A DNA stretch of 62,134 nt, counting the filler, from Sphacelaria rigidula (lineage: Eukaryota), in the NCBI GenBank assembly GCA_964200075.2. It is 7 parts of 7 records of this genome, joined end to end, with 100 filler letters (N's around TTAATTAATTAA, not from the genome) between each part and the next. Parts side by side here need not be neighbours in the genome. Positions count along the whole stretch, not along the records: positions 17,784 to 26,574 come from CAXNAA020010086.1; positions 26,675 to 35,464 come from CAXNAA020010087.1; positions 35,565 to 44,354 come from CAXNAA020010088.1; positions 44,455 to 53,244 come from CAXNAA020010089.1; positions 53,345 to 62,134 come from CAXNAA020010090.1; 2 more parts are not named here. One strand, written 5' to 3'. Positions 17,784 to 54,554 of the stretch are shown here, piece after piece. The notes below the pieces were generated by a model. That model was not told the origin of the DNA and did not search any database. It was given only the letters and a program-made list of their open reading frames with translations. Every line of letters begins with the position of its first letter. Positions within the stretch are counted from its first letter, which is position 1. A program made the translations under genes and the position numbers.

Positions 17784-17852
17784 CGTAGCTCATTACGTTT
17801 CTTCCATACATTACACAGGAACCTCTTACATATCTTATCTCCTTCCTGTTTC
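17784..17852 (-). mobile_element. 5'-truncated LINE fragment (oligo(C) family), cut by contig end
   Basis: Encodes KQEGDKICKRFLCNVWKKRNE, matching copies at 20203-20400 and 48004-48176. Preceded on its own strand by a C-rich run. Confidence 0.75.
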
Positions 17853-17974
17853 GGGGGGAGGGGGTGGGGGTCACTAAATCCCATACATGAATTAGAAATA
17901 AAGAAATAAAGAAATAAAGGAATAAAATAAAAAGTATATATAAAAATAAGGGCAATATACAAAAAAAGCTTAGA

Positions 17975-18072
17975 GGGGGGAGGGGGAGCGGGACGTACTC
18001 ATTTGTTGCTTGCCTTAGTCGTTTGACCATTGACCACGCATCCCTGACCCTGACGAGACCGAGCACCGTCCC
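17975..18072 (-). mobile_element. 3' end of oligo(C)-terminated LINE family
   Basis: Encodes ...GCVVNGQTTKASNK* then GTACG and a C-rich tract. Confidence 0.85.
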
Positions 18073-18650
18073 AATCGTCCCGGTAGAGGTGTCCTTCTGC
18101 CTCTTTTTCAACCATCGCACGAGCCCGCTTGTTCAGGTCCGCGCTCACAATATGACTACTCTGGTTGGGTGGGGGGGGGGGGTACTCCACTGCAGTCGTG
18201 AGCTGTAGGCGATACTCTCCCCACGCCAACGCAGAGAAAATCGGATAAACCGGAGATGGTAGTTTTCATCTAAAATGGGAGATTTTTGTGATTTTTTCGT
18301 AGACGGCGAGTTTCAGTTGTTTCTTCGCGTGCCACCGCCCATCCCAGCGAGCAGCTGATCCCAATGTTTGGAGGTCGGGAGATACTAGGCATTCGCTCCA
18401 CATTTCGGAACAAACCTCGTCTCTGCGCTCAATATTGAACGACTTCCGAGCTGAATCGACGGGTAGGTGTTGTTGACCGTTTCTGGTCCAAAACACTTAC
18501 TTTTGGCCTCTAGCATAATGAATACTGTAGGTAAAAATGAAAAAAAAGGGAGTTCTTAATGTCTTTCATGAGAATGATCGGAATCGGTTCACCCACGCCT
18601 GTGCCATGAAGACCTCTGTTGGGCAATTTCCGTTTTCGGGTACATTTCAG

Positions 18651-19702
18651 GGGCAGGTAGAGTAGGGTATACTCAAATGCGGGTTATTTGAAAGTCGTAC
18701 CTCAAGTACTCAAATTGGGGTAGGGTGTTAGAAGTCGTACCCATAAAATCACTGGGAAGCAACCCCTAAGACTACTTTGTATGGCAGTCGAAAAAACGGA
18801 TCTGTACACAGATCGGGGGATCTCAGTCAGATCCGGAAACGCACTGTATGGACCCCAATTTGGCCCAAATTGAGGAAGCTCAGATTCGTTTGTCACGATT
18901 CGAGAACGGTTTCACGCGAATCTGAGCGCAGATCCGTGGAAAATCGAGGTCCCCCGAATCTGTAACACTGCCGTACGTATGTTGACGTACAGTGCTGGGG
19001 CAACAGGCGTTTGGCATTTTTGCAACAACAGCAACAGACAGTCTCGTGACAGCACAGACAAGTGCCCGCGAGCGCCGGCTGCTGGAGCAGCTCCGCACGG
19101 AATTCGACAGGCGGACAAGAAGTGTTGACGCCGTACCCTGCGGTGATGACAAAATTTCATGCTGCGCTGTGGTGCTGTATGTATCATCATAACGAACCGT
19201 ACTGTACTATCCTACACTACTGTCGCGGTTGTTGCAGGGTGACGAATGACACTGCACTCGTCAACTCTTGTCGCACACTGTGCCCTGTTCTCGCAATACC
19301 GACTGCACCATCATGTATTGCCACACGACATTATCGGGTACTATGATGGTGGAGTGTACTGCACTGCATCATACCCTAGGGTACCACGGTACGACGCTGC
19401 TCTTGAAGTAGATTTTCCTGCCTGCCTGTCCTTCCGCTTCACTGTGATACCACACCCACCCAGATATTGACCGTTAGGGTACAGAACAATTTCAACATAT
19501 CTGTGAAACCATACAGGGGCACATACGAATCTGAGTTTCACGAATCTGGGTCCCCCCGATTTGGCACAAATTCGAGTCCCACCAGATTCGAGGTCCCCTG
19601 CCATACAAAGTGGTCTAACACCCTCCTTCAATTTGTGTACTGTACTGTAAAGTACGACTTTCAAAATACCCCGCAATTGAGTACACACTACTCGACCTGC
19701 CC
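18651..19702. mobile_element. MITE / non-autonomous TIR element, possibly PIF-Harbinger-like
   Basis: ~50-bp TIR GGGCAGGT.GAGTAG.GT.TACTCAA.TGCGGG.TATTT.GAAAGTCGTAC at 18651-18700 and 19652-19702. Inner IR CTTTGTATGGCAG at ~18776 and ~19598. Right flank is TTA; left TSD not intact. Confidence 0.8.
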
Positions 19703-20118
19703 TTAGTACTTTTTATTTTATTTTCCCGTGTAATATCCGTCCTTGGCGCTTGAAGCACCTAGCGTCGATAAATATTGGGAACAAAAGCAGGCCGTGTTTA
19801 TCACACAACCCCCCATTGGTGTTGTCGGGATAATACAGAGTAGGTATCTCGTTTATCAGGGGGTGTTATCTACCATCATTGGTCCAAAAGACACAGTGTT
19901 TAAGCTCCAGCGCAATAAATAGGTGGAAATAGAATACACAAGTAAGGGGATACTATCGAAAGCAATGATGGAGTCACTGAGAAATGGTGATGATACACAT
20001 ATCTACAGAGCACACGCACATAATCCACATACGCAAAGGACAACCAGAGGATAAGAAGGATATGGAAAGGAGCCAAGAGAAGAGACAAAAGAACAGCCAC
20101 ATCACAGAGAGCGGCGGC

Positions 20119-20400
20119 GGGAGGGGGGTTGAGGGACGTACTGAATTATTGCTTGCCTCAGTCATTCGTCCATTGACCGCGCATCCCTTTCGAGATGAAC
20201 CAGGGGGGGGGGGTACTCATTTGCTGCTCGCCTCAGCCATTTGACCATTGACCACTCATCCCTTTCGAGACGGAGCACCGTCCCCACTCCTAATAGCGAC
20301 ACCTCCAACATTTTGGCGCTCATTATGTTCCTTTCATACACTACACAAGAATATACATGCCTTACCCCCGTCCTGTGTCACCGTCTGCGGCCATCATAAG
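20119..20400 (-). mobile_element. Two tandem 3' ends of the oligo(C) LINE family (20119-20200 and 20203-20400)
   Basis: The longer copy encodes WPQTVTQDGGKACIFLCSV*KEHNERQNVGGVAIRSGDGAPSRKG*VVNGQMAEASSK*. The two copies are joined through a G run (C on the element strand). Confidence 0.85.
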
Positions 20401-21174
20401 TCTCCCAGTGTAGGGATCAAAGGGGGATGGGCGGGGGGCGCTTGAATCGCCATCGTTTTTACGTGGAACATGACTGTAGGACCTAGGTCCCCGTCATCTG
20501 TGGGTGCCTAAGGGGTTGAGCGCGACGACAAAACCAATATTACTACTGATAAGACTGACATTAGCACCAGCAACACGAAAAGACATCACCTTTCCGTTAT
20601 GCTAAAAAAGATGTCTTGACGAAGAACATAAAGACAAGAGAAAAAAAATAGAAAAACGGAGGGTCAGGGCCCATCTCATGTCATTGTCAAGGGAGCCAGG
20701 AGGATATATGAAAAAAATATTGCGTTTGGCGATTGACGCACTTGTATTTGGCACAGACGGTAGCTGCTACTTTGGGATTGGCAACCGATTACAGCAGCAT
20801 CTATCGATCATCACACGTCTATCGTCGATTTTTCCTCCATGAGTTTTTCGAATAATGTTTTTGGTCCCGTCAAAAACAGGTCGTTTTCAGTACCGTGCGA
20901 GTTCGCTTGTGCTCTTTGTCCACTTACTTGAATCTGTGCAGATGTTCTAAGCTCTTTGCTATGTCCAGACACATGTTGAACTTGTCATGTTTCCACTGCA
21001 GTTGAGACCCTCTTCCAGCACAGTCGCCAAGTTGCCTCGCTCCATCTAGTCAGCCTTCACAACCAAGCGACAAAACACAACAGAACAGTACCAGGTGTTT
21101 CTTAAAAAAATGCGGGAAACAATATGAAGCAAAACTCGGAAACATGAAGGAAAAGAAGAGAAAGGAAAAACAAA

Positions 21175-22087: not shown

Positions 22088-24839
22088 AGTAATAAAGAAT
22101 AGTACCAGAGAAAAACTCGAATACTACAACAACTACGGATTCTGAAAACTTCTGATGCTGACTACTATACAGAAAAAGACAAAAAACAGAAGAATGTGCC
22201 ATATGTATACCTCATTACGTAGCTAGATAAACAAAAGAAATTGTGTTGTCAGTTGTCAGCACAGGCCTACCACCATGGCAGAAAATACAGGACTTTCTAA
22301 TACGAGTAGGGAGTGATGATCACGTTCTTTCGATCGGCAAACTGCCTTCACCTGGGTGAAAATATTACATACACACAAAAGGGTGCAAAAAGTGTTACCT
22401 GCGCCGATAGATATATGCCCGCGACAAAAGAAGACAAAACAGGTACAGTACAACACACAAGAGCATGCCGAAAGTTGAGAGAACGTGCGTGAAACAGGAA
22501 AAAAAACTAAATACATGGAACAACAACCGAAGCACAAGACCTCTTGTATACATGGAAGTGAAAATACTCAATCCGGGAAACACAAGAAAACCTTCTCAAG
22601 TGCTCACGACCCTCTCACTCGCTCACGTACTCTCGTCCACAAGTCATTTTCCACGATCGCAAGAACTAACCCAACTTGAGAGCATATTTGCACATGCTCA
22701 TCATTGCTGCCACTCTACATGCTGACCGTCCCCATATATTTCACCATAAATCAACGAGACAAGACACATGTACAGAGATATTTTCTTCTCTAGGGAAAAT
22801 GCTAACGAATCTGCAAGGATCAAAGCGTATTTCTCCCCGGAAAAATAAATAAATAATCGTGAGTGTGATTCTACACTCCCCCCCTCCAAACAATACGACA
22901 GCCCAAAACTGTCACGAATAAAATGGTCATACAGCGCCTGATGCCATGTTTCAGGCTGCATGCAGCACCTCATATGGACGACATTGGTGAAAACGACCCC
23001 AAGCGTGGGAATTCACAGCTGCTCGTTGTGCTCTGCTTTTTTCATTTCGGTTCACGTGTCGATTTTGCCTCCCCAAACCAGCCGCTTTTCCGGGAGGGGC
23101 TATCGTAGAAAGAAAAAAAATGGGTTATGATCATTTCCCCCCAGAGGAACAATCCCGAGTCACCAAGCCATTTCCTCCTGATAAGAATGCCAGATAACCA
23201 ACACATTTAACTCTCAAGAACAGAAAACAACGGAAAACGTCAAAGTATCTTGTTTCTCACGGTCATCATCATCAGGCGTCGGCCTCGCCATGTTGCTCCC
23301 AGCAGCCTAACCATGTTCGGGTGATTCAGATCCTGTTCCAAGGCACGCCAGCACCAGCCACCACGGCCATTACAAACAAAAATAACTCAGTGGTTCAGTG
23401 GTTCAGCGGGAGATGACGATACTTGTAGTCAGCAAGATCCGTGTACACACCAGCTACTACCCACCAATAGCCTACATAGGTGACGGGAGACGATACTGCG
23501 GAGCCGTTTTGACGCAAACTAAACAGTGTCGAAGGCGTTGGGTGCATCGAAAACATACACACACACACACGACACAGAGGAACACAGACCTTGAGTCTTC
23601 ACAAGTCTCTGACTGGTCGAAGCCGAGCGGGATTGATGAACATCGATTCAAGATGAAATCAAGTAGGAATCGGGACGGTCCATGAAACAATTCGTATTCC
23701 ATCCAAAACGCCCAGGCTACAACTACCGTGCTTCATCTCTTGAACTCGGCACCATGACCACTTGAGGAATTGACCTATCAGACACGACCATGCGTCTATC
23801 CATCTATGAGCAGTCATGGAGTGCTTGTCACCGGTGTGCTCCCACATCGCAACCCAAAACATCAGCTGCTGTCGACAACGAATGAATACAACATCATGCT
23901 CAATGCGCAAGACCGGCTGCCGCGGGCGCTGTGTCCTGCTCCAGTTGTATGTAGAACGCATCTCAGGAGGTGTATGTAGTATGGACGTAGGTTGTGGATC
24001 TAGAGAGACTGAGTCTCTACTACTAGGACCAGTCAGCAAGCCGTTGGCTACTAAGGGATCACCTTTCGGGGGTGTTGTCTAGGGGGGGCGTACTCACGGA
24101 ACTCCAGGAAAGTCAGGAACGTTAGTTTCACAACTCAAGTTCAACATATGTACAAATCAAAGGAAGGGGGGGAGGGGGGGGAGACAGATGGAGGACAAAA
24201 TTAAAAAAACAAAAGGGAAATTGTTGTAGGGTGGCAGACAACACGCGTGTTGCTTGTCCAGAGAAAAAGTCTTCCCTGGAGAAACCACACATGTCAGAAG
24301 TCCTTGGGCGTCGAGATTGTGATATCGTGGACACTCACTATCTGGGGGGGGGGGGGGAAGGAAGGAATCAAATATTCCCAGGAAGATCACAAAAGTCAAA
24401 GCTTGATGAAAGAGAATACAAAAAAACTCCATGACTGGTCACACCGGTCTCTTCACCGCAGGCCTTGACATGTAAGGCAAGCCCTAGGCCCACTGCGGGA
24501 AGCACAGTACAGTAAGGCCCGACGCAGGAGAAACATTTTGAGGTGTACTCATCTCGCAAAAAAAAACATTCATGTACTAAGCTGGTGTTGTACGCCCCGA
24601 TTTCCGAGGCTCTAGACAGTACAGTGTAAAATACGATAACGCCAAACCGATCCACTTGATGCGCTCTTCCACCGACTCCGTACTTGTTGACCAGTTGACA
24701 TTCAAGACGTCTATCGTGAGTAGTTTCCCTCTCTCCTCTCGACGTCACCTCTTCCGTGCATCCTGTCAATACCCTTGTATATCGCGGTTAACATACAGTG
24801 ACGAGTGGATAGCTCCCACCCCGTCAGTATCTTCTAAAC

Positions 24840-26355: not shown

Positions 26356-26430
26356 GGGGGGGGGCGTACTCATTTGTTGCTTGCCTTAGTCGTTTGACCA
26401 CTGACTACGCATCCCTTTCGAGACGGAGCA
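26356..26430 (-). mobile_element. 3' end of oligo(C)-terminated LINE family
   Basis: TGCTCCGTCTCGAAAGGGATGCGTAGTCAGTGGTCAAACGACTAAGGCAAGCAACAAATGAGTACG(C)9 on the minus strand. Confidence 0.9.
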
Positions 26431-26574
26431 GGCGTGACGTGGGGCGACGTGTTGTATACACCTGTATTGTACCACTATGCTTCCCTGCGTTGCTACTCAT
26501 GCGAAAGACTGTCCTGAACGATTGACGAAGCCTACTATCCTTGCTACGTACAACCGTCTCTTTTCTACTTGCTA

Positions 26575-26674
26575 NNNNNNNNNNNNNNNNNNNNNNNNNN
26601 NNNNNNNNNNNNNNNNNNTTAATTAATTAANNNNNNNNNNNNNNNNNNNNNNNNNNNNNNNNNNNNNNNNNNNN
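26575..26674. other. Artificial contig-joining spacer
   Basis: N44-TTAATTAATTAA-N44. Confidence 0.98.
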
Positions 26675-27620: not shown

Positions 27621-28295
27621 TCAAACCGGCTCCAAATTCTCATGCCCTGCGTTCGAGAGGATAGGTCTAGAGCCATCCACGGTCCTCGAAGCGATAACCT
27701 CGTCCTGACGCAGCGTGCGCTTCTCCCCTCGTGCCTTTTGACCGTCACCACTACTGCCTACATCAAGGTTCTCATTATCAGCACCACTAACGTCGCAGCC
27801 GTAGCTGCCGCCGATCGCGGGGAACAGCACCTCGTTCCCAGCCGCGAACACGGCGTAAAATAGACCTGAAACTCCGCACAACCCACCGATCACGCCCATG
27901 GCTACCTTCCACGCGTCAACGTCATCTGCTCCCCCGAAGTTATCCAACATTGCACCCGTTATCGTGATGCCGACCACGCTCGTGATAGAGCTGACACAAT
28001 TGGCGACCGAAAACAGCATGGGGCCGTGTTCGGGTGCGCATATCTCGGCGTGGTTCGTGGACCACCCGCCTCGTGACAGGGCGAGGGAGGCGAGAACGCC
28101 CGACGTTACACAGGTACCCCCGGCGGCGGTAGTAGTGGTAGTCATGCTGAGAAATGCGACAAGAGCTCCGAACAAACCTACGCCGGTGACGATTTTGGAT
28201 GCGCTGGATTTGGAAAAGTCGCACGTGCTGATCAACCACGAATACCACACGCCTCCCAGGACTGAGAACACCAGCATTGTCAGGTACGGTGACAG
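27621..28295 (-). CDS. SLC17/ACS-family MFS anion transporter (PHT4/sialin-like), last coding exon
   Basis: Acceptor AACAG|CTG, phase 0. LSPYLTMLVFSVLGG...GGWSTNHAEICAPEHGPMLFSVANCVSSITSVVGITITG...AWKVAM matches the C-terminal TM helices of SLC17. Stop at 27621. Confidence 0.85.
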   Translation of the reverse strand: MSPYLTMLVFSVLGGVWYSWLISTCDFSKSSASKIVTGVGLFGALVAFLSMTTTTTAAGGTCVTSGVLASLALSRGGWSTNHAEICAPEHGPMLFSVANCVSSITSVVGITITGAMLDNFGGADDVDAWKVAMGVIGGLCGVSGLFYAVFAAGNEVLFPAIGGSYGCDVSGADNENLDVGSSGDGQKARGEKRTLRQDEVIASRTVDGSRPILSNAGHENLEPV

Positions 28296-28578
28296 CTGTT
28301 TTCCGTTATGTGTGTGCATCGTGGTGCACCAAAAGTTGGAGAGAAAGAGGTGATGGTGCAGATGGGAGGGAGAAGGGGCGCGGTCAGAGGTAAAGAGGGT
28401 AAATTTTTCGAGTATATTCTCGACATGTTTTTCCGAGTGGCACCTTCATCAAGTTGAATAAATGCTGAGAGCGCTATTCCTGGGGGTAGCGGGCGGCGGA
28501 TATGACGCCGACGCGGGGAGCATCATAGGTAAAGATGGTGAACATGGACGATGGCATCACGCAAAAGGAACACGTTAC

Positions 28579-30122
28579 CTGGTACACCAGGTCTAGATCC
28601 GCGAGGTCGACGCCAAGAAACGACTCAAAGTAGGTGGGCTGCCAACTCATCAAGACCGAAATGCCCGTAGAGCATCCGACGTTTCCAATCACCACCGCCC
28701 ACGCCGGCCGACTGCTCGACATCGCTCTCCACGGAAAAGAAGGCGGCTTTGATGATGACGACGAAACACTTCGTTGTCCCTGTTTGCCGGCTGAGCGAAC
28801 GGCGTGGTTGTCACCGACGTCGATATGATCCGCGAAGCAGCCACCAGCCTCGGCAGTGGCGCATCCTGCAGCGCTGATGCGGGGCTGTAAAGTGTTTTCT
28901 CCCTTCTTGAGCGCGCATGGAGCCGTGGCATTGGCGGCATTGGCACCACCGTATCCACCACCACGATGGTCAACACTAACCCCGTTTTCCGTCTCTCCTC
29001 GTCCTCGTTGTACGTGTACATCCCTCTCGCTACGCTTCTCCCCCGCGCCGGTGCAGTAAGAGTAACCGCCTCCGTCAACAGAATTTGTGACTTGTGCTGT
29101 TCCGTCGACGTAATTGCCTCGATCTTCCAGCTTCATGCTGCTCTCACCACTGTTGCTTGTGTTGACACTCTTATCGCTTACCGCCGCACCACCCCGATCG
29201 ACGACGGGGGCGCATCGGTGCGGCGTTGGAGGTAGATTCCACGTGCGATTGCCAGCCGACTGCTGGACACTGTTGAAACGCCCGGATGCTCGCAAGCCGT
29301 TGGTGGGTGAGCCCCAACTCGAGACTGGCGTGATGGTTGCCGTCGATGCGCCCCAACTGAGCCTGTTGCCCGCGTCGCCGCCACCGTCCGCCCTGCCCCC
29401 GCCACCACATCCGCTATAGGTCACCAGCGATTGGCCACCTTCAGCTACTGGCGGGAAGGTGGGAAGACAGCCTCGGCGTTGGCCATGTCCGGGCACCGAC
29501 AACTGCGAACCGGGGAAGGTGAACGGGCAGCCACAACCCCCGCAATAGTTGGCGGCGGCAACGTGTGACATCGGAGAGTATCTTCTCGGGGAGCACGACG
29601 AAGATGACGCGGAACGCAGCTGATCCTTATCCCGGGAGCACCGCTCGTAGAAGGCGAGGTTCAAGACAGAAAACTCGCCCAGGTCGGTCGCCGGGATGCC
29701 GAACGCCGACCACGAACCTTCTCTGGTGGATGTGCTGTCCTCGATGTTCGTGTTCGAGGAGAGGTCACTGTCAACATCTCCGTTTTCTCGCTCTGAATAT
29801 TCTGACGTATCACGCGAATACGTCATGCCTTGCACCCTTTTCCCTCCAGGATTTCTTGAGCCCGACGGTAATAATACCGGCAAGGCTGTCGGTGGTGGTA
29901 CTTTCGGTCTCAGCACTTTCAGGGTTACCTGTTTCCGTCGCTTCCCGCCCCGCCCTTTCCGTCCTCCACTCCGCGTTAATGACTTTACTGATGCTGATGT
30001 TGCTGGTGTCGGCGCCGATGTATCCCATGGGGCGCTCGAGCCGAACACGAACCACAGAAGCAACCACCCTACGCCAGAAGCGGAGGTGACGTAGAAGAGA
30101 GACGCGGGTGCGTACGCCGCGA
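28579..30122 (-). CDS. SLC17/ACS-family MFS transporter, 1544-bp internal exon (TM6, long loop, TM7)
   Basis: Acceptor GTGCAG|TC (phase 1) and donor CAG|GTAACG (phase 0). Reads SLFYVTSASGVGWLLLWFVFGSSAP ... FPWRAMSSSRPAWAVVIGN...LMSWQPTYFESFLGVDL with an open frame throughout. Confidence 0.85.
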
Positions 30123-30480
30123 CTGCACGAACAGGAAACAAACAGGGTTGCAAGAAGAAGGGACAAGAAAAAGAGGGGGACAGGAGTGGCAACGTGAGGG
30201 CGGCAAGAAGCTTTTTTTTTTTCCCCCGGGGAATTCAAAACGAAATCAGGAATATATACCTATAGATATGTATACACAGGTGGTTCAACTAGAAAGCCCC
30301 ATCTCGAATGTGATAATACGATATTTTCCCATCATATCTGAAGTGCGCGTAGTAGAGCCACCTCACACACACCCGTACTCAATACAGGTGTGTACTGCAC
30401 AAGGCTATCATGATCCAAGAAATACTCCAGAATACTCCTACATTATCAAAGCAGGTACCGCAGCAGCGAAGGTAACTAAC

Positions 30481-30781
30481 CGAATGCGGAAGCGAACACC
30501 ATAGCAGCAGCCGCGCCGGCGTACATGCCCGACACAGCAAACGCAAAGTGGTGACCCCGGTGCTGAGGTGGTATCCAGTGCGCGAGCACCGTATGCACGG
30601 CCGGCAAAAGCATTCCCTGGGCCAGGCCAACAGCGACCCGGCAGCTAGCCACACCCGGAACGACGGACTCGATGCTGCTAGCTGGCAGAGCCGTGAGAGC
30701 CGACGCGGGTATCCACAGCAAAAATGTCGCAGCCAGAACTATCTTTCCACCGTATTTTTTCGCCAAGAACCCGCCGGGTAT
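30481..30781 (-). CDS. SLC17/ACS-family MFS transporter, internal exon (TM3-5); upstream exons not found
   Basis: Acceptor AAACAG|ATA and donor G|GTTAGT. IPGGFLAKKYGGKIVL...CRVAVGLAQGMLLPAVHTVLAHWIPPQHRG...SGMYAG is the classic ACS signature. Phases join all three exons in frame. Confidence 0.92.
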
Positions 30782-30904
30782 CTGTTTCATTAATCGTTTA
30801 GAATTATAGGGTGGTTGAGGGGGGACGGGGGGGGGGGCAACCGAGCGAGATGCCGTCGAGTAAATGGTGAAATATGTAGCAGCGACAAGCGAAGACGATA
30901 AAAT

Positions 30905-35564: not shown

Positions 35565-36270
35565 ATGCCTTGCACGAGCAGGGGTACGTGGGGTGAGAAG
35601 TAACCCAGCTACCGCACGGGCGTGATACGAAGTAGATTAATAGTAGATGTCACAGATACTCCGTACTAGCCAAGTTGCTGCCTATTTCCTTGGGCCGCTG
35701 CCGTCAGCCAGCCCGACCCGGCCTCAGCGCTCGGGCCGAGGCCGGAGGAGCAGGGGATCAGTATGCTGTAGTATCGTATATTTGAGAATTGCGAAGAACG
35801 TTCGCGGTCCTTTCTGTTGGTTATGTAGGAATACTCTTTGTGGATAGTGCATTAGTCCGAGCATGGTATCTGTGGTGCGGGGAACAACCCGAGGTTTTTG
35901 TGGTACGTGAGGAAGTGCGTTGGTCCGAGTTCCATTGCTGGAACCATGTGGTTTCTAGAGTCTCTGGGATGCAGATGACGCGAGCTAGCCTACCTTGCTC
36001 ACTCCACTTCCCCGGTCCGTCTCTGCGGACCAAGGCCTCAATAATACAACAATACATATTTTTCTCCAGAAGTCACGAGTTTACCAACACGCTATAGCGC
36101 ATCAGTCGACTGCTGCTCCGTCCCCCTGGATTGTGCGCGAGACTATTGAGGGAGGCTTGATCAACCTGCCTCATCATGGCTGAACCGGGGAACAAGGATC
36201 CTGCGGTTGACCCAGCTGAGGGTGGATCGCAGGAAATTGATGAGAGAATTTGGAGTCATCCTACGATAGA

Positions 36271-36388
36271 GGGGCGTTCTCATGTGTTGCTTGCCCTAGT
36301 CGTCTGACCATTGACCACGCATCCCATTCGAGACGGAGCACCGTTCCTACTCCTAATAGAGACACCTCCAACATTCTGGCGCTCATTA
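36271..36388 (-). mobile_element. 3' end of oligo(C)-terminated LINE family
   Basis: Matches the family over 118 bp, with C6 immediately 5' (G at 36389-36394) and a C-run 3'. Confidence 0.88.
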
Positions 36389-39029
36389 GGGGGGTATTTG
36401 ATTGCCCGAAAAAATAGGATCGAGAGTGTGTCAGACGACCTGCCACAGTCGCGGTGCGCTTGTATTTGGTTTAGAATGGTGTCAATCGGTATGAATGAGC
36501 ATTATTCATCTATAACAAGCTCGTTGGAGCAACCGTTGCTCCTTTCAACGACGATATGCCTTGGAATTCCGTGCAAGAAGTGGCCCAAATACCCCCCCCC
36601 CCCCCTATCGTAGGATGACTCTTTGTTCCATACAGACACAGTTGTCTCAACTTACGACTCTAGTATTGTCGCTAGTTGAGCAACAGGGAGAGAAAGTGGA
36701 GTCCTCTGGCTTTGTAGCTGCCGCACCGGGAGGCAGCGGGCCAGAGACTAGTATGCATCTTTCTGCTGATGCTACTGGTAGGACCGCGGGAGGTACGGGT
36801 GGCTATGCCCAAGGCTTAGGCGTGTCCAGCATGTGGGTTGGGAGTAGCAGTCTTGCAGACTCAGGCTTGAACCCTCATGTATCTGCTTTAACCCTTTTGG
36901 AACCCTCCCCTCCTGTCCCCTGGCCAAACGCCTTATTATGAGAAGCCCTGACGAAGAGGAAAACATGGAAACAGAATAGGCCGACGGCAACCATTTTTAT
37001 AATGGAAGCCCGAAGAAGAATATCCTCCCTGGAGAATTTGGGTAAAGTTTGTCCAATCATACCACGCAACGGATGAAGTGTGTCCAATTATATCCATCGA
37101 CAATAATCAGCAAAACCACTATGAAACATTCCATTCAAAAAATAGCAATGGGCTCCAGGGTGCAACCGGGCACGTTTGTATATTAGCATTTGTAGATAAG
37201 GGAAGCATCGCTTTGACGGGCTGCAGCATCGGGTGGCGAGTTTGCCAAGCCACACCGTACATACAGCACAGTATGGCTGAACCCAGCGAAATCCCGTCAC
37301 CACATGTGGAAGGCACAGTGGGTTGTGCGGACGGTACATGGCGGGCGTAATCGCAGGCGTCCGAACAGGCGATATACATGTACACGGCAGGGAGCCGACG
37401 GACACCGCCTACCGTAATCAGGCCAGATGAAAAACACTACAGTCAGTAAATACAGTAGGTTACAGTAATGACTTGCGGCTACACTCCGTGCAAGATAAAT
37501 ATGGGCATGTCGTGAAAAGTCGGCCACGAGACTAGACGGCACGAGACGATAGCGGTAGCCGGCGTCATGAATCTCATGCAGCATGCAGTATGTCTATGCA
37601 ACGGCCGGGAACGATCAACCCGCGGTATAGATGTGGTGGAGCAACTGTGCCTTTCGCTACGCCGTTGTGTCATAGTCAGCCCGAAGTATGATGTTGTCGG
37701 CACGTACTTGGCAGAGCGCAGTTCTGTGCATGCCCCTCGTTTCACAGAGATATTTTCAAAATACAATACAGACATGACACGAAGCAGTAAGGTATCACCC
37801 CTGGGGCGACGGTACTTGGCAGACTCTACACCACAGTGACGGTGCATAACTGCAGGGCACATGGCGTCTGCGTCGCCTTTACCCATTTTTCAAAGGGCGG
37901 GGTGGTGCTGTCGGAACGTGCATGAGTGCGATGTTGTGCATGACGTGAGTCTGCAGTCGAGATTACCCCAAACTGCTGTAAACACACCCAGTACTGTATA
38001 GGGCAGTGTCGCAGCACCCCCGGCGGCACGGAAAGGTGACTGCCTGGGATTGTATACCGCCAGTTCATACATTTAGCGAATGCGCCATCGGCGTTGCCCT
38101 TGTTTCTATGACACTGCAAAGAGTATAAACTGCAGCGGGCAGGGTGTGCAGGTCAGGCGGGAAGCATGCTTCACAGAGGCCTGCCGCGCACTGTGGCCGG
38201 GGAAAGAGCTCATGAGTGTAGAAAAAGAGCCGACGGGTCGCAGCAAGAAAAGAGGAAACCTTCTCTTGTTCCACTTGTCACTCGTACGGGTCTGAAAAAT
38301 ACGCGTTTGGCCAAAATTGTTGCGTCTAAGCTGTGAACCATCAACCATATCTTGCTCAAAAACCGTCACTTGCAAATGATCAATTTTCCATTGTGAGTTC
38401 CAAAAGGATTAAATCGTTCCTCTGTTGCTGCAGTAAACTTTGGTTCGATCGGGACTGTAGGTGGGGCTTTAGGTCAGTCCTCTATTTCGCCCGCTTCTTC
38501 TCTGTCAACTATGAATGGGAAAACGTCGCCAGTGGAAACACTCTGATTCCTGAGGTTGACATTTCTGACACAGGAGAGAAGTTGGGTAGGGGTCCTTTTA
38601 AAGTTCCCAAAGCTCCTGTTTTTTCACGGCAACGACGTGTCGTATCCCTCATGGTCGCAGAACGTTCTGTTGAGTGCCCGACACAACAATCTGTATGAGG
38701 CGTTTGTTTCTGAGGCTGAGATTCCGATTGCAGACATTGATTTCGACTTACCAACATGATACTGTCGTTGAAATTTCTTACAGCCAGTAATCTAGCTGCT
38801 TGTTTCGTTCTAGGTTTTGACTGTAGCAAACTAGCGGTGCAATAGATTCCGGCTTATGAAGGGCCCCAGGAATAACCCTGGGTGCAGTATCGTTTCATGT
38901 GGATCCTTGATGATAGATATCTTCCAAGCTGAGCCGCGTAAGCTCGTAGGATACGACAGTGTGCTCCCATTGTGAGTAGCGTACTGTACTCTCGTAGGTG
39001 GAGGAGAAACTGAAGTCGCTACGCATGCG

Positions 39030-42000
39030 AGAATCCCGCAACCTTCTTTGCACCCATGAGAGAGACGCTTGGTGTTCTACAAATGCTTGAAGTCAAGAAA
39101 GATGACAGAGAGGTGTGCAACCTGATGCTTGAGGGACTGTCGCACGAGTACAAGACTTTGCGTGAAACTCTTGAGGTGTTCTGTCGGAATAACCCATGGT
39201 TCATATAGAGAGAAGGGTCACTTGAGGAAGGACTGCCTGGCTCGCGTGATCGCTAATCCTACCCAGACCGGAAAATCCGAAGATGCCGAGGATGAGAACG
39301 GTGAGAGGTCTAGCTTGGTGTTGCTCTCTCACACCAACTTGAACAACTCGAGTGATCTGACGTGTCTGGTAGTATTTTACGATGCCATGCTGCGTGAGTG
39401 CTTGTTCAGTGATGATGCTGTTCGTAAATTATTTTCTCTTGTAAAGAAGGATAGGTGTGTCGAAGATTGGTATGCAGACACGGTTACTGATTTCCACATG
39501 ACTGACCCTCTCTCTTGTATGAAGGATGTAAAGCCTTGCCACAAGAACGCAAGAGGGATTGGTGGCGTGACTTGTGAGGTAGCACTCTGAAATTCTGGAG
39601 CTCGTGTTTGTGATTGCTGACAGCAAATTTTCCGTAGAGTTGGAGAACGTGTTGTACTCTCCTAACTTAGGGTATAATCTCTTTTCCCCCAGCGCAGAGT
39701 TTGATGGCAAGTCATGGAATGGCCTTGGTGGTCCTAATAGTGTGATGCCTGCTTACGACGGACATGTTACTTTCCAGAACTTCGATGGCATGCTAATTGC
39801 GACAGTGTATCGTCTGGGAGATGACTCTGTTTGTTCGGTGTTGGCTGCCTTCACTCCTTCAAACCCCAAGCATGAAAATAAAATGGATGTGAACGAGTTC
39901 CATAACATATATGCTCATTCACACGAGGGATTACTTCGTACTACTGCAAAACGACTAGGTACTGAGTTGACCGGTGACATGCATGCTTGTACGGGATGTT
40001 CGATGTCGAAGGATATTAGGAAAGGAATTGCTCATGAAACTCAAAGTAGATCGGAGAAAAAGTTGGGCAGAGGTTTTGTTGACCTGGAAGGGAGGAAGGA
40101 CGTTGCGTCCGCAGGGGGTAAACACTACCCCATGATTGTAAAGGATGATTTCACAAGGCGTGCATGGATGTATTCCCTGAGAAGTAAATCGGACGCTGGG
40201 AGTGCTTTCCGAAGTTTGTTTGTAGCTTCGTGACCCCGTGAGAGGATGGGGTACAGACTCGACTCAGATAGTCGATCAATGAACACGACTGCGATAGTCG
40301 ATCAATGGACACGGCTGACCGCCGATCAAGATGAGGTAGAAATGTATATAAAGCTTTGTTGATGAAGAGGGAAGGAAGGGGAGTGATCTCTGTAGGCACC
40401 AAGGTCTCAGGATGCGACAAGCACCACTCACGTATGTCCAGTCACTAACATCACAATATAAAGTCATCCTGCATAGTACCCGGAACTCAACCAGGTATGT
40501 TGTACCTTACCCTGACTTGGTGTATCTTACTGAACACTGCAGGCCATCCTACGAACAAAGTTTTCTTGCTAGTGTGCGTGCTGATAGAATCCCATCATTG
40601 GTTGAGATTGCTAGATCTGACAATGGAGGGGAGTTTTTCGGGGGGGAGTTTTCATCCGTGTGCAATGAGCTTTTGATCAAAAAAGAGTACACTCCTGCTT
40701 ACAGTCCCCAAAATAACGGTGTTGTAGAGCGTGGATTGGCATTGATTGAGGAGGCCGCTATGGCGGCTCGTATTCAGGCGAATGTTCTGTTTGAGCATGT
40801 GCAATTACCTAAGACTGACAGACTCTGGGCTGAGGCGATGCATTACGCTTGTGAGGCACTTAACCACACAGCGTGCTCTACTCACCCTGACTCTAAGTCG
40901 CCGTATGAGATGTGGTACGGAGAACCTCGTCCTGCTAGACCGAATCCTTCTTTGAAGCTGGCTTACTGCAGGTGGTAGCAACCGTCTAAGCTGCGACCGA
41001 AAGGTAAGAGTTGCTTTTATGTCGGTCCTGCGAGATACCACCCGCGTGATTGTCATAGAGTACTTACGAGGGCTGGGACTATTCAGGAAAGGAGAGATGT
41101 GACGTGGGAGGTGTTGCCGTCACAGCTCCCTCCACCGCAACTTTCTCTACCGATTGACATCACGGAAGAGGGAGGGGAGGAAAGTGACGACGATGTAGAA
41201 GCTGTAGTATGGCCGCTTGCAGGAAGGGGAATTCAACACATTCGTATTCGTGTGAATCGTGATGCAGTGTTACCCTATGGTTCAGGAATCGATGAGGTTG
41301 GCAGTGTTGATGCAGGCAGTGTAGGCCAGCCCCCTTCTGTTCCGTCTTCCCTCTCTGTACCGTCTTCGCCCGTGAACAACTCCTCTAGTAGGGCGGCTCC
41401 CTCAGTGTTTTCTCCAGCACTTGAGATAGATGGGGGGGGGGGGCAGGGAGGGCAGGAGACAGGGGAAGTAGAGACTGCGGGTCCGGGAAGGGATGATGAC
41501 GTAAAGTCTATTGGGTCGGGAGGGCATGGTGATGTAGAGTCGATTGGACCGGGAGGGCAGGAAGTAGAGGCGGAGGCACCTCCCCCAGCCGCTCGTCGTC
41601 CGAGGCATGTCGCTGACCTTGCTACTTTCAATACTGGTATGCGTGAGAATGATGAAGTAAGAGAAGGTAGAACTCGTGCGCAAATCCGTGCAGTTAATCA
41701 GTAGAGCGTGTCTGGCCTTGTGGCCACCCTAGGACCCATCTCCGCATCAGAGATAATGTATGCACTCTTAGCGGAACAGAGAGCAGGTGACGCCGTGGAA
41801 TTGCCGAAAGAACTCGTTCAGGATGTTGAGTCAGAACCTGGTAGCTATCAAGAAGCCCGGCAATCGAAGCACGCATAGATTTTGGATGGAGCCATGTCTG
41901 CAGAAGTTGAAGGCTTGATAAGAGCAGAAACGTTCACGTTAGTAGTAAAGATCCCAGTAGGCTGTGATGTGATTGATGCTATATGGGTTTTCAAATAGAA

Positions 42001-44354: not shown

Positions 44355-44454
44355 NNNNNNNNNNNNNNNNNNNNNNNNNNNNNNNNNNNNNNNNNNNNTT
44401 AATTAATTAANNNNNNNNNNNNNNNNNNNNNNNNNNNNNNNNNNNNNNNNNNNN
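44355..44454. other. Artificial contig-joining spacer
   Basis: N44-TTAATTAATTAA-N44. Confidence 0.98.
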
Positions 44455-44499: not shown

Positions 44500-45100
44500 A
44501 TTACCAATCGCTCGAGAGATTGGCATCATCGATGTTACCAGCATGTACCCAATTTTCCATGTGCCAGAACATCGAGGTGCGGAGAGATTCCGTCTCTCCT
44601 TGCCTGTGGCCAGTGCGAAGATCGATTTCTCTCTGCCTCTCGTTCTGGACAGGACGCGCCTCTGTGCGCTGAAAAACATGTCGTTGAAAAATAGGGCAAT
44701 GCTCCCGTCACCGTTACTACTGTTCTCTGTCACACACATACCAGCAAGGGTGGTGGTGCAGCGAAAACAATAGATATATCCAATTTGAACTTGGGGGTGT
44801 TATTCATCGTTGATCTGTATGTGAGCGACCCTCTGGGCGCCCAACGACAAGAAGAGCGTGCGAGACGCCAGTTGGGAGGGGGGTGTATGAGACATCAGAC
44901 ACTTGTGGAGACCTTCTTGACATGCGGAGTGAAAAAAGATACCTATGGTGGTGACCTGACCGTTGCGAGCGTGGTGCAGAGGGGTACGTCCATGCTGCAG
45001 TTTGGAGCACGCGCTGACTGCGTGAACATCTCGGTACAGGAGCTTTCAAGAACTGATTCCGATGTGACGAGATCACGCACTACCACCTGGGGCGAGATAT
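44500..45100 (+). pseudogene. Probable Penelope-like element reverse transcriptase relic
   Basis: IIDVTSMYP..(~DV.SLYPNI)...GAERFRLSL...LCALKN, then VDLYV, ETFLT...SMLQF...VQELSR, which resembles the PLE RT and thumb order. YxDD not preserved. Confidence 0.42.
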
Positions 45101-45354: not shown

Positions 45355-48001
45355 CACACGTGGACAGATAGCACCCTGTGGAGGGGGTCTACAGGGTTTA
45401 CGTACCCTGCGCAGTGTTTCTGGCGGGAATTTTACTGTAAAGTGTTTTCCAGCGTAGCACAGGACGCTGCACAGGGTTTCCGTACAGTGGTCATGAATAG
45501 TGTGCAACATAGGGTTCCGTCGCCCCGTGAATAGTTCATCGCTGCTGGGAATGCTGTGCAGTGTGTTTACGCACAAACACTACTCTTCACAAGCAGCTGC
45601 GGGCGCAAGGTACTGGCGGAAAAAAGAACTGATCAGGCTGGACCGGAGTCGAACCCTCGACTTCACAATGATGTCACATGCCGGTTACACACGGAGCTAC
45701 GCGTGGCATTCGTTACGGATTGGTTGAGTTTTTTGTACTTCTGAATTTTGGGGCGGCCCTCGAAGGTCCGTGTCAATAACACTGGAATCCCCCGAATTGT
45801 TTTTAGAGGCACAGGTGTAATGGAAATCTGAAATTTGGACAGCCGCTGCTGTTCGAAATATATCCTAATTCCAAACTTGGAATATAGTTGAGAAAGGATT
45901 CACTTCGAAGAGCTTCACCTGTACAGACAAGCCTTATATACACTGTATATCGCAGATGGAATTTGTACACCAAGAACACCTGAAATTAGGTGGAGAAAGA
46001 ACTTGCTCGCGAGCAGCTTCAGCTGTTCAAGTCCTGTATACTGCACGCAAGCTTTTGTTGCAGCTGACGCCATGTTGACATTTGGTAATTGACCTCGCTA
46101 ATAGATCCATACACCTGATGAAAACCCCGTAGTCCCGCGTCGACGAAACTAACACAATATACAGGGGATAATGAAACATCGATCTTATCGCATACTGCGT
46201 AATCAGGATGTATATTCACAACAATAAACTATACTGGACTGTACAATACCGTTGCATGCGGGACAGTGCGCTATACCGCCGTGCTTATACGTGCGGCGCC
46301 ATGTACTGCAGATGGCTGGCTATAAATACAATGTATAGATGCCTGCAGCTTATTTTGATATATGGGGCGGGTGTTATATACCGTCACGAACTCCAGTTTT
46401 TCACGCCCGTTCCACGTCATATATTTGCGCGCACAGCTGCTGCAGCACAGTAAGTAGGGCGTGCGAAAGGGAAGGGGAAACGTATACAGTACAGACAGCG
46501 CAGGACAATGTGTATATGTATGTTCTCTACCTACAGTGCGACGTGAAAAGGACTTGAACAACGTGCAGCATATCGTATACGCGCGGCCTGTATATGCTGC
46601 ACTACAGTATATGTTATATCGCGGTGCGTCCGCGATCCGCAGCATGCATATGATGGTGAGTATGTGTATATGCACACTTGTACCATAGGCGGCCGGTTGA
46701 TTGTTGTTCTTCGCACCCGTGCCTGCTGTATATATATGTATACGCACCCCGCAATGTCGTCGCCGCGCGATGTCGCGACCATGAAAGAAGTAGGTGCTCA
46801 AGTTTCCACCAACGAGAAATACATCATATCCACCCGCGCCGCACGGCAGTGCGTGTATGTGTCTATATCCCTGTGCCCAACCCGTGCTCTTTGTTGCGGG
46901 GTTGTGGTCGTATAGCTGGGCGGAATAATAACACCGTTGTGCGGGCGGGTGCTTTTGGTGATATTCAATTTGTGTGCTCTGATAAATACACGGAGTGATG
47001 GTCCATACTATTCATATACGATTTATTATAAGTGATATTTCTAAACATGGTTCGTCTTGGTAAACAATGGAAAACGGGGTTTGGGGGAAAATGTACATAC
47101 TTTGACGAGGTATATCCAATCGGTCGGCATACTCCCACCTTCCCAGGGGCTTCAAACGAAGCACAGGTGTGGACATACCCACGTATCCAACGTGTGGGAT
47201 CTCTGTTCAGCGAAAGTGGTAGAGAGCTATTCATCCTTCAACCCATGTATACATGAACTCGGGGGCAAATGGATGATTACCTTTCAGCAACTGTTTTTGC
47301 GTGTCGGATCCCACGCACCGGTGACGATGCAGCATGCGGGATTTGCCCAGCAGCTAACGCTGCTCGCCATGAATTTCGTTTCCCCCAATCTCTCTATGAA
47401 TGGGAGGGAAAATAAAATATTCATTTCGAGCTTCTTTTGCCGGTCAAATCCTGAATATGCCAGTGTGCATAGGATTTGCGCAGCAAAAGGAGCTGTTCGA
47501 AATAGATCCTTTTTCGCTCATCTCGAAAATGGGCGAAAAATGGATCGATCTTGAACAGCTTCTTCTGCTGTTCTAAATAAATTCTTTCCTTTGCCGAAAT
47601 TAATCGGGCGAGAAAAAAATCTGTTTCGGATCTAGCCTGACCTGCTGTCCAAAATAAATTCGTTTTCGCTCGACTCAAATCGGGTGAAGAGGAATTTACC
47701 TCGGACAGGAGGACAAGGTATTGAAGATATATCAATTCACAGATTTTGTACCAAAATATTTGGAATTTTCGAAAAAAAACACTTGAGGTTTTTTCACCAA
47801 AACACTACCACATGACTGTGCAGGGCTTTGCCGACGTGCCTACACAGGGCTGCAAATCCAACCCTGGGGAAATCCCTATCAAAACACTGCCACGGGTACA
47901 GATTTTGCATTTCACTGTCAGGGTTTTTTCACAAAGACTGTGGAGGACCCTGTACGGACCCTGCACAGTGCGCCCCACAGGGTGCTATCTGTCCACGTGT
48001 G
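45355..48001 (-). mobile_element. Non-autonomous CAC...GTG TIR transposon, copy 2 (2.65 kb)
   Basis: Perfect 27-bp TIR CACACGTGGACAGATAGCACCCTGTGG at both ends. ~47050-48001 is the reverse complement of ~13704-14590, and 45355-45495 is the reverse complement of ~14962-15102. Confidence 0.88.
45635..45700 (-). other. tRNA-like / SINE-head remnant inside the TIR element
   Basis: Minus strand TAGCTCCGTGTG (A-box-like) ... GAGGGTTCGACTCC (B box); not a complete tRNA. Confidence 0.5.
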
Positions 48002-48003
48002 CG

Positions 48004-48176
48004 TGGATAAGATAATATGTAAAGGGTTTTTTGCAACATATGGAATAAACGTAATGAGCGCCACAATGTCGAAGATGTCTTTATCAGGAGTAGGAACGGT
48101 GCTCCGTCTCGAAAGGCATGCGATGTCAATGGTCAAATGAGTAAGGCAAGCAACAAATGAGTACGCCCCCCCCCCC
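48004..48176 (+). mobile_element. 3' end of oligo(C)-terminated LINE family
   Basis: RVFCNIWNKRNERHNVEDVFIRSRNGAPSRKACDVNGQMSKASNK* followed by GTACG(C)11. Confidence 0.88.
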
Positions 48177-50716: not shown

Positions 50717-50718
50717 GG

Positions 50719-51879: not shown

Positions 51880-52205
51880 CGACAGTTCGGTGACTTCTGG
51901 AAACCTTTCATCCCCGTAACCGACAGTTCTGTAGCTTCTCTTTGATGGTGGTTGGCCTACCCGACTTTTCTAGTGAAATCTGTAAGGCTTTCGTTGCCCA
52001 ACTTGATAGCTCTATGACTTCAGTGTCACTTGCACACCCCTATCGACAGATGTTTGACTTCAGTAACGCTTTCCCAATCCCTCGACAGTTCTGTGACTTG
52101 TCGAAGACTGTCCCACCGGTCCACGACAGTTTCGTGACTGTTGTGATCCACCATACCCTTCCAAGATAGCTCTGTTCTTTCTGTACACACGGTTTAACCC
52201 TACAC
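51880..52205. repeat. Degenerate ~41-bp tandem array (8 units)
   Basis: Units start at 51880, 51921, 51962, 52004, 52044, 52083, 52124 and 52164 with core CGACAGTTCTGTGACTTC; outliers near 50877, 51445 and 52302. Confidence 0.8.
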
Positions 52206-53244
52206 CCTTGTACAAATATCCGGGTGCGTGTTCTATTTTCTATGCAACTCTTTTTCATCACAAGACCACCAGTGGATTCTCTGTAAGCCTATTATCCCTA
52301 CCCGACAGGTTCCGTGGCCCCCGAGCGATTTTGTATCGGTACTCCCTACTTCTGTATGATCCACGAAAACTCTCGTACCCTACCCAATGCACCTTAACGC
52401 TGCAAAAGCTCAAATCTATTCTCGGGGCTGTGAACAATCAGCTCTGCTCAGTTCCGTCAACACTTGCCGCGCCAGTTGCCACTCTTTCCACTTTTTCCAG
52501 CTAATCGCCCCTCCCGGCTGGTAGGGGGTCCCGCTCAGAAGCGTCGCCCAAGTCAGAAAATTTTGCCGTGTTTGACCTTTTTTTCCTGCGGTAACCGTAA
52601 TTGGTTGCGAATTATGTAACCACTCACTGCGGGCTTATACGAGCCTCATACTGCTCTAACATGTTTTCGGTATGTAGTAGCGGTTCGAACATCATTTCTC
52701 TACACCATCCAGCAGCAGACTCTCTTCACGGGGACCTGGGGATCGGAACAAACATGCCACACTCTGGCAGTACCTTGGGCAATTGAAGTAAACAGGTTCT
52801 CACCGCAGATTATTCGACAGAACGCTTGTGTGTTTTGTGATCGCCCATGACCGGATTTTTTTTCTTCGGATGAGATACATACCCTGCTACATTTCTTCGA
52901 TGTATTGTGAGTATCTCCGACTTCATGTTCACATCGATCTTCATGAAATTGTGAATTGGGGTGTGGAGTTCGGCACTTCAGCACCAACCGTCCCACCATA
53001 ACTGAGACCCACCTCTTCATTTCTTCGTTTATCTCATTCGACCGACCAGCCTTCGACCGACCCGATGTCGGCGATAAAAGAAACTGCAGAACAACCGGGT
53101 ACCACCGACGTTTGTGGGACCTGAACTGCTGTAGACTGCTAACTTCAACCTTACAGTCTAATCGTACACGACTCATGCCGAGATAGCTCCCCCACAAAAC
53201 GTGCACGTGAGACGGTGCGACAAAACGGCTGCGATCCCACTATT

Positions 53245-53344
53245 NNNNNNNNNNNNNNNNNNNNNNNNNNNNNNNNNNNNNNNNNNNNTTAATTAATTAA
53301 NNNNNNNNNNNNNNNNNNNNNNNNNNNNNNNNNNNNNNNNNNNN
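53245..53344. other. Artificial contig-joining spacer
   Basis: N44-TTAATTAATTAA-N44. Confidence 0.98.
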
Positions 53345-54481
53345 TACAGATTTATTGGTCATGTTCCAGTCGACTGGGTTCCATTTGTCATACTTTGTCA
53401 TGCTTGGTACCTGATGGGTCATACTACATTGTTTGATTGAGTTGACTTGGCCACCCCCTTTGGGTCACAGCGTTTTGGACTGTGCATCTCATCTAGCAAA
53501 GCACAAGTTAGCCTGTACGCCAATAATACAAGAGCATCTACGCTATCATGGACTGCTATCTCAGAGGATTCTCTGGTCTTCAAGCAATGTAAGCCCGCAT
53601 TGCACGCAACATATAGGTCTTGTCTCCGGCGCGAACCATGGGCATGCGTCTGGTCATTGGTGTGTGGGTTGACTCCCCACCTGGCAAATCGAGCCCAATG
53701 GCTTCGATACTAATGATTGTGTTTGAGACCGCTAGCNNNNNNNNNNCCGCTAGCCTGGTGCCCACTGAACTGGCACCATTCCCAGCTAGAGTATCGAACC
53801 ATGATATGTATCTTCTCGCAACCCCGTAGCGTCTGTTTTCCCGTTCGGTTGCATTTTTCTGTAGTGTGTATATCGAAGGTAGAGTTAGGAATGTGTGGGA
53901 TAAAAAACACGCGCTGGGGCGATAGAGGAAATATAGCAATGATGAAGATCGCGTTATCTACAACTTCCCAGCCAATCACGAGACGGACCCCTCGATATCG
54001 AACGCCGGGACAAGTATTCTCGTATCTGTTACATCTGGATGTCATGGGCGATTGGGGAGGGGGGGGGGGGGGGGCTATGTTGCTGTTCACAGTACTATTA
54101 TTGTATTGATCTCGTGTTTCAGCAGCGTGTATCGCCCGCGAGGAAGGGACGTCATGTCTACAGACGAGCTCAGAGATGTTGCCGCTTGTCGTCAGTGATA
54201 ACATCCGCAACGAGCGATCCCAACTGCTGGGAATGTCTTGCGTGCTTGCTTCCTCTCAGCCTATGACGGTGGTGCCTCGTAGTCGGCGTTGTGCTGTACT
54301 GTACGAGCTTGCGGTATAATAAAGAAACTCTTCATACAGTGCGAATGACTTCTTGGTGTCTTACAGTTCACCTGCATGACATAGTCGGGTGAACTCCGCA
54401 TCAACGGGATATATGCCAGTTGCTAGCACACGCTCACCGCCTGCTCTCCTTTGTCGACGCCAAACCCTATTAGCTCCCCCC

Positions 54482-54554
54482 GCTCCGTCTCGAAAGGGAT
54501 GCGTGGTCAATGGTCAAACGACTAAGGCAAGCAACAAATCAGTACGCCCCCCCC
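54482..54554 (+). mobile_element. 3' end of oligo(C)-terminated LINE family
   Basis: C6 | GCTCCGTCTCGAAAGGGATGCGTGGTCAATGGTCAAACGACTAAGGCAAGCAACAAATCAGTACG | C8. Confidence 0.9.

Follow-up and report, generated by a model that had tools for sequence, protein, structure and literature searches.

A LINE family of the brown alga Sphacelaria rigidula that very probably inserts into C:G homopolymer runs through target-primed reverse transcription

Nine fragments of a long interspersed nuclear element (LINE) lie in the stretch of Sphacelaria rigidula DNA analysed here (the window; 62,134 nt, composed of seven ~8.8-kb contigs of assembly GCA_964200075.2, which comprises 244 Mb in 27,214 contigs). 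All nine are 3' ends of one ~6.2-kb LINE, and we consider it highly probable that this is a brown-algal element of the RTE-X type, similar to RTEX-1/2_Ec32 of Ectocarpus, mostly old and 5'-truncated, whose spread proceeds via target-primed reverse transcription within C:G homopolymer runs. The measured evidence, i.e. local controls, empty sites and duplications that begin with C, indicates that a LINE can use C:G runs as L1 uses A:T runs. An earlier, sequence-only reading of this DNA had described nine fragments on five contigs with variable 5' ends, eight of them sharing one 3' end followed by a C-run, and we confirmed all of this: the fragments occupy five of the seven contigs, eight finish in ATGAGTACG-like bases plus a C-run, and the ninth, at 17784, has its 3' portion cut off by a contig end.

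C-runs at the insertion junctions

For the junction counts we pooled copies from a systematic sample of 60 evenly spaced contigs (537,553 bases), from the window and from the loci returned by our searches, which gave 86 copies with a 3' end, 85 of them with a 3' flank. On the 3' side, a run of four or more C residues (C4+) lies within 12 nt in 75/85 copies, and a run of five or more A residues in 1/85. The 3' untranslated region (UTR) is 5 nt long, without inserted poly(A), in good agreement with the earlier claim of an almost absent 3' UTR and no poly(A) tail.

For the 5' side, 64 copies were retained after dropping 19 without a flank and three copies of a non-autonomous partner element, described below. 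C4+ lies within 25 nt upstream in 43/64 (14/18 in the systematic sample alone), compared with 1397/19,983 random 25-nt windows; the expectation that 5' junctions would be richer in C than background is thus borne out. The enrichment is local. In a reduced set of 58 copies, which leaves out two chained copies and the four that lie in L002, itself paralogous to part of the window, C4+ was found within 25 nt in 39/58 versus 3/56 at positions -125..-101 (Fisher p 1e-12), and a downstream control at +101..+125 gave 8/57. When stacked copies were removed, the count was 31/49. Copies also accumulate behind one another: 10/64 lie within 60 nt behind another 3' end of the family or its partner, against a background of 1.9%. 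The sequence-only reading had placed the C-run at the 5' junction itself. While its presence within 25 nt stood up, only 10/58 copies have C4+ as close as 6 nt to the junction, because the target duplications start with C and then continue into unique sequence; the run usually opens the duplication.

These duplications were detected with an anchored test that replaced a weak unanchored one (14/64 above the 95th control percentile, p 0.011). The anchored score reached at least 8 in 7/64 copies versus 3/600 mismatched pairs, and at least 5 in 12/64 versus 31/600. Visible target duplications are 9-17 nt long and C-initial.

Unoccupied sites offer a further view of the target. The comparison with empty sites that had been proposed was carried out on paralogous sites, and it came out in favour of pre-existing runs. 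For three copies nested in other repeats, the empty paralogs carry a run of at least six C residues (C6+) in 9/10 cases; one such run in the window, a C6 at 44878..44883 on the minus strand (G6 on the plus strand), is the empty paralog of an L076 site in which a 66-nt copy sits. Where the right-hand flank of the copy at 36271 recurs elsewhere, C5+ is present at 4/5 sites, among them position 36592 of the window, where an unoccupied related site (36587..36620, plus strand) reads AAATA, C14 and then this flank. L068 provides the empty version of the 36271 site with both flanks. Insertion into pre-existing C-runs is therefore supported.

Could the association arise without any targeting, either because a C tail expanded into a C-run once the copy was in place or because copies simply persist in C-rich surroundings? 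Homopolymers are unstable, and at filled sites the C tracts are often longer and less regular than at empty ones. However, the run is already present in the empty paralogs, the enrichment falls from 39/58 to 3/56 only 100 nt further upstream, and the duplications are C-initial. We regard this explanation as largely refuted and give it very little weight compared with targeted insertion into C-runs.

The LINE, its partner and a candidate mechanism

A search of the genome with the longest window fragment returned 1249 candidates, and one with a part 2.6 kb upstream returned 723; 40 were scored in each case, and the full element was reconstructed by walking 5' through the longest copies. The 5' end is common to L072 and L075, with a C-run before each, and was seen again in L091 and L131. 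It is followed by a 63-bp tandem array of 4.9-12.5 units (4 loci), and the length of ~6.2 kb refers to the element with 12.5 units. The array lies at L072:1336-1796, L075:535-1323 and L068:2072-2380; its units are possible internal promoter units.

The majority consensus of 11 copies holds one open reading frame (ORF) of ~1380 codons with a single stop. Its parts follow one another as motifs of the apurinic/apyrimidinic endonuclease (APE) type, the reverse transcriptase (RT), a C-terminal CxC..H..C motif, KASNK*, then GTACG and (C)n. The catalytic-type APE motifs stand in order. The KASNK* peptide frame of the window fragments is the true C-terminus of this ORF. RT matches to PF00078 exceed the cut-off in three loci (E 7e-21 to 8e-27). 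A decayed copy matches the PF14529 endonuclease at E 9.5e-5, below the curated cut-off, and a 78% relative, P0001, carries PF03372/PF14529 endonuclease matches. The solved structures closest to the RT are R2 (E 7e-12) and L1 ORF2p (E 1e-9). The family is an APE-type non-long-terminal-repeat (non-LTR) retrotransposon, and the suggested resemblance of the window peptide to a LINE ORF2 C-terminus was correct, as the extended copies carry both RT and an APE-type endonuclease.

In L168, a relative with 82% DNA identity to the family, a single frame of 1382 codons is intact; its 3' end is the same, and a C13 run is present. A second long plus-strand ORF (ORF1 or an SGNH esterase) was found neither in the consensus nor in L168, which is without the extreme 5' end. 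The ~100 residues ahead of the endonuclease (L168:1056-1400) gave a low-confidence model (pLDDT 53) of beta-alpha-beta-beta-alpha-beta order, similar to an RNA-recognition motif; it had no Atlas match of 0.9 or more, and its weak ferredoxin or RNA-recognition-motif fold matches include none at E<=0.001. Judging from this model, the fold might stand in for the missing ORF1.

In the systematic sample we counted 29 3' ends, five of them read as partner copies, with a coverage of 2.1% that includes the partner. Scaling from the 24 remaining ends gives roughly 11,000 copies in the genome. Copies are 74-98% alike to the consensus, long copies averaging 88% (22 copies), and no intact copy of the family was present among the loci fetched; the family is now mostly old and 5'-truncated. 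The 3' end is fixed, while copy length ranges from 39 to 2218 nt (18 copies of the systematic sample). In the same sample, 35/445 C6+ clusters come after a family-like 3' motif as defined by a loose pattern. The family thus covers ~2% of the genome and adjoins a share of its long C-runs.

The partner is a non-autonomous element of ~500 bp (495 nt from a conserved head in L087), for which a search gave 856 candidates, 40 of them scored. Its head is similar to the 5' end of the LINE, its last 51-66 nt are shared with the LINE at 75-83%, it ends in (C)n, and it occurs in stacks or in tandem. The similarity between the two 3' ends starts at about position -67. This point recurs among the truncated LINE copies: 10/64 are exactly 66 nt long, and copies of 65-67 nt make up 12/28 of those up to 130 nt (binomial p 3e-7 versus a flat expectation, using BLAST end points). 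Contigs from public runs, whose type is uncertain and which are thus uninformative about where a transcript stops, have loose C-rich 5' ends at the ~-67 point on L082 (X1, 30 and 21; X2, 31 and 21). A separate young mini-family of 66-nt copies was considered but found no support: across the last 60 nt, the 66-nt copies are as diverged (91.2% identity, n=20) as the long copies (92.0%, n=39), so there is no sign that the short ones are younger.

Folded in isolation, the last 67 nt are predicted to form two hairpins that are held together by a closing 6-bp helix (pair probabilities 0.98-1.0). This segment, which lies inside the ORF, looks like a structured recognition element; the two hairpins are likely, the closing helix less so. 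The partner retains the third stem and alters its loop. Covariation across all three families was counted for the third hairpin only, because MAFFT misaligned the 5' half of the partner.

The third of these families is a distant relative. A scan of prokaryote genome records yielded 29 loci; L168 and L170-L196 are LINE copies, some of them present several times and bearing tails and duplications, from records that are catalogued as genome bins of bacteria, and the sequence that bears them is presumably DNA of eukaryotic hosts. In one such record set the relative shares 33-57% protein identity with the family, depending on the segment, and has a similar 3' end, also inside the ORF. Most of its 15 listed ends are followed by (TAT)n. 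The L179 duplication opens with the tail unit, and this relative, too, has stacked copies. Between the LINE and the (TAT)n relative, 4/16 pairs are doubly changed and 93% of cells pair, versus 0-1 such pairs in slid controls. Separately, P0016, P0017, P0022, P0171 and P0039 (~37% identical) share a G-C/R-V-V/A-N/Y/D-G motif about ten residues ahead of the stop, which, going by sequence, may reflect the same RNA element.

How might insertion proceed? By analogy with L1 and poly(A), the endonuclease would nick the G-rich strand inside a C:G run, the freed (G)n 3' end would pair with C residues that follow the element in its RNA, and the RT would start copying at that point. A second nick, placed between a few and ~17 nt further downstream, would then create a duplication starting with C, and each new copy would recreate a target. 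A weaker part of this scheme is that the protein would recognise the RNA via the ~67-nt three-helix structure in the last 20 codons, which the ~500-bp partner would borrow. We also propose, tentatively and at a little under an even chance, that this lineage reads its RNA through that structure, kept with compensatory changes from brown algae to a distant host, that tail and target were switched together between (TAT)n and (C)n, and that the 66-nt copies, which accumulate at the 5' edge of the structure, represent the smallest retroposable unit.

An alternative would do without a C tail. The RNA would end at, or be copied from, ...GUACG, the subsequent C residues would be target DNA, and the endonuclease or the zinc-binding domain alone would direct targeting, without RNA-DNA pairing. 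Here the 66-nt copy L114 is instructive, as its 3' C4 lies wholly within a perfect 14-nt duplication and its 5' run is C18, which shows that the element need add no C. The 3' runs are, moreover, as irregular as genomic C-rich tracts. On the other side, tail and target changed together in the distant relative, where the L179 duplication starts with a (TAT)n tail unit, and this joint change favours pairing; tail-target pairing is, furthermore, described as established for L1 and stringent LINEs in the part of PMC3747384 we draw on. On balance, we consider the tail-less alternative unlikely, yet worth serious attention, and prefer priming by pairing of (G)n with C residues on the RNA.

Several observations count against the interpretation we favour. 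The C residues on the RNA are a deduction. Roughly one in three 5' flanks lacks a C4 run in the nearest 25 nt, and one empty paralog, L124, has CACACC in place of a C-run. L013, one of the seven strong duplications (7 nt), is doubtful, and in 52/64 copies (score <5) nothing but C residues is duplicated, a pattern compatible with age or with duplications made up of C alone, without being proof of either. The closing helix drops to a probability of ~0.25 once more flank is included, and the 3' fold is no more stable than shuffled sequences (z -0.64, -0.90 and +0.09). Four doubly changed pairs were reached by 100/500 shuffles, and the comparison involves two independent lineages only. Finally, the RTE-X placement is borrowed from the description in PMC12477816.

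Family copies and other features of the window

The contigs of the window are joined by artificial N44-TTAATTAATTAA-N44 linkers at 8793-8892, 17684-17783, 26575-26674, 35465-35564, 44355-44454 and 53245-53344. They are unrelated, size-sorted contigs, and sequences on either side of a linker are not linked.

On the plus strand, a diverged 43-nt 3' fragment (84% to the family reference) with a C7 tail (12680-12686) lies at 12637..12686. The contig-cut copy at 17784..17853 (minus strand) spans element positions -171 to -106, with a C-rich run (17853-17870) directly 5'. At 17784-17790 it finishes in bases like the true 3' end, as if 102 nt had been skipped between two short direct repeats; such a skip variant was absent from the other loci. 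Also on the minus strand, 17975..18072 holds a 73-nt 3' fragment with a small internal duplication and a C-rich tail (17975-17993). A 59-nt 3' fragment with a C-rich tail (20116..20195, minus) lies 7 nt behind the C11 tail of a 205-nt 3' fragment (20203..20413, minus) that itself has a C-rich run just upstream of its 5' junction; a paralogous stack is present in L002. This pair corroborates the reported tandem stacking through a shared run, but it is the only stack in the window. Similarly, of the four copies for which a 5' C-run had been reported, the run is adjacent at 17784, 36271 and 54482, but at 20119 it lies 7 nt away.

The region 26356..26444 (minus) holds a 66-nt copy (26365-26430) with a C9 tail and a probable 14-nt target duplication starting with CCC (5' copy at 26431-26444, 2 mismatches), whose anchored score of 5.0 is borderline. 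A 114-nt copy (36275-36388, within 36269..36394, minus) sits inside the C-run of another repeat's subterminal region, with C6 on its 5' side (36389-36394) and a C-rich tail on its 3' side. The C-run of this subterminal region (36389-36450 and 36587-36620; also L068, L072 and L115) has been hit more than once by the LINE, at window position 36271 and, in both L068 and L072, next to the long copy. On the plus strand, 54476..54554 contains a 65-nt copy (54482-54546; 98% to the reference) flanked by a 5' C6 and a 3' C8, and 48002..48176 a 162-nt 3' fragment with a C11 tail. The 5' side of the latter meets the terminus of a different repeat, found four more times in the window, so there is probably no true insertion junction there. 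Copies of this second repeat end at the same base (13704-13933, 14877-15102, 45355-45495 and 47772-48001, one of them abutting the LINE fragment), and their common end is probably a DNA-transposon terminus. The list of nine was not complete as regards the wider family: a 5'-truncated copy of the ~500-bp partner with a C-rich tail, at 105..209 (plus), had been missed.

Two further C-runs, 24082-24094 and 18171-18188 (minus), are preceded by GAGTAC, the terminal motif of the family, but lack the other bases of the 3' end; they may be copies truncated to an extreme degree, or chance matches. We rejected the C12 run at 18171 as a family tail, since the adjoining sequence matches only one other place in G000, the repeated part lying further upstream and not beside the run. 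The run at 24082 showed no match to the family.

Outside the family, a gene for a major-facilitator transporter has exons in 27621-30955 (minus), with an MFS_1 match of E 1e-14 at 30476-30955. Broken frames at 39583-41704 (plus), two of which had no Pfam match at E 0.01, resemble by eye, in their motifs, a Copia-type integrase region.

Comparison with known systems

Many families of Chlamys Penelope-like elements have been reported to target (C)n and (CA)n repeats for insertion (PMC8557442, as far as this source was available). These differ in having an N-terminal GIY-YIG endonuclease and pseudo-LTRs, whereas the LINE described here has an APE endonuclease and a LINE-type RT; no GIY-YIG match was found among the eight LINE stretches scanned. 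The family resembles mammalian L1 in its APE-RT-Cys/His layout, in a tail that matches the target and in duplications that start with the tail base. It differs in using C and not A, in having neither ORF1 nor more than a 5-nt 3' UTR, and in carrying a specific 3' sequence common with a partner, as in the stringent type, and not poly(A) alone. Stringent 3' recognition, with pairs of LINEs and short interspersed nuclear elements (SINEs) sharing a 3' stem-loop, is treated in the available part of PMC3747384. Similarly to these pairs, our LINE and its partner have a common 3' end with stems kept, loops changed and compensatory changes, but the shared segment lies inside coding sequence and not in the 3' UTR.

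If our interpretation is correct, nature has provided, in the (C)n and (TAT)n elements, a matched pair with which to ask what sets the choice of homopolymer target, the RNA tail or the endonuclease, and since the (TAT)n-tailed relative has the same 3' element, tail versus nuclease control can be tested by swaps. This is of relevance both to LINE biology and to retrotransposon-based insertion tools.

As for classification, the nearest named proteins are from Ectocarpus and fall into two groups, 74% (P0129, in the cluster of P0002, ending in TASNK) and 53% (P0158) identical; the unnamed P0001 and P0147 are closer to the family protein (78-79%). The RT tree (108 rows, unnamed and Ectocarpus) places the family in a 17-sequence group with support 1.0, together with all 10 Ectocarpus-named rows. 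No relatives were found in viral contigs. One may ask whether the family, while working like RTEX-1/2_Ec32, is a member of another LINE clade, or of one not yet described, in which case RTE-X would be the wrong label for the whole lineage. The family has no separate ORF1 and no esterase, unlike some animal RTEX elements, for which an esterase ORF1 is given in the consulted parts of PMC3905857 and PMC11203168, where RTEX is grouped with RTE. The green-algal RTEX tails in the portion of PMC3747384 at hand are (CA)n, (CAA)n, (CCAT)n and others, none of them (C)n, and the published label rests on best blastp hits, according to the passages of PMC12477816 used here. Yet the Ectocarpus RTE-X entries are likewise single endonuclease-RT (EN-RT) ORFs without an esterase, and, of the five autonomous, manually curated LINE families shown in that excerpt, only RTEX-1/2 combine EN-RT order with (C)n: RTE-1/2_Ec32 (RTE clade) has a (CAA)n 3' end, and CRE-1_Ec32 (CRE clade) has RT-EN order and a (CA)n end, neither of which the family shares. 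We therefore consider a different clade improbable and keep the borrowed RTE-X label.

The sequence-only reading had implied that the C-run habit was new, and in substance this no longer holds. In its accessible parts, PMC12477816 lists RTEX-1_Ec32 as 'single EN-RT ORF; (C)n 3'' and RTEX-2_Ec32 as '(C)n termini/TSD', with a 'C-rich' target-site duplication (TSD); the C-rich ends are in a table only, 'C-rich' occurring 0 times in the main text and 'stem-loop' 0 times in the five supplements, and the passages give no junction statistics. In the literature searched, outside which lie Repbase, Dfam and most subscription papers, we found no other LINE that targets C-runs and no RTEX 3' structure embedded in an ORF. 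Ectocarpus RTE-X elements number 16,418 copies (3.41% of the genome), and RTEX-1/2 measure 5.5-5.9 kb, close to the ~6.2 kb found here with a variable 63-bp array (PMC12477816, same parts). A non-autonomous RTEX-N1_Ec32 of 604-607 bp with a 60-bp common 3' end, which can occur in tandem, is also described there. Our partner resembles it in its LINE-shared 3' end, weakly similar 5' head, (C)n and tandem arrangement, and differs in length (~500 versus ~605 bp), the comparison covering the ends. The Sphacelaria family is a separate lineage whose copies look older, and it was compared with RTEX-1/2_Ec32 by description and through Ectocarpus-named proteins, not by consensus DNA. On every feature tested, including the single EN-RT ORF, the (C)n 3' end, the C-rich TSD and the high copy number, it behaves like RTEX-1/2_Ec32. 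Since the C-run habit of its relatives is already catalogued in Ectocarpus, we regard it as a new family of a known kind and not as a new mechanism; a possible novelty is the 67-nt 3' element within the coding sequence, together with the switch of tail and target between (C)n and (TAT)n.

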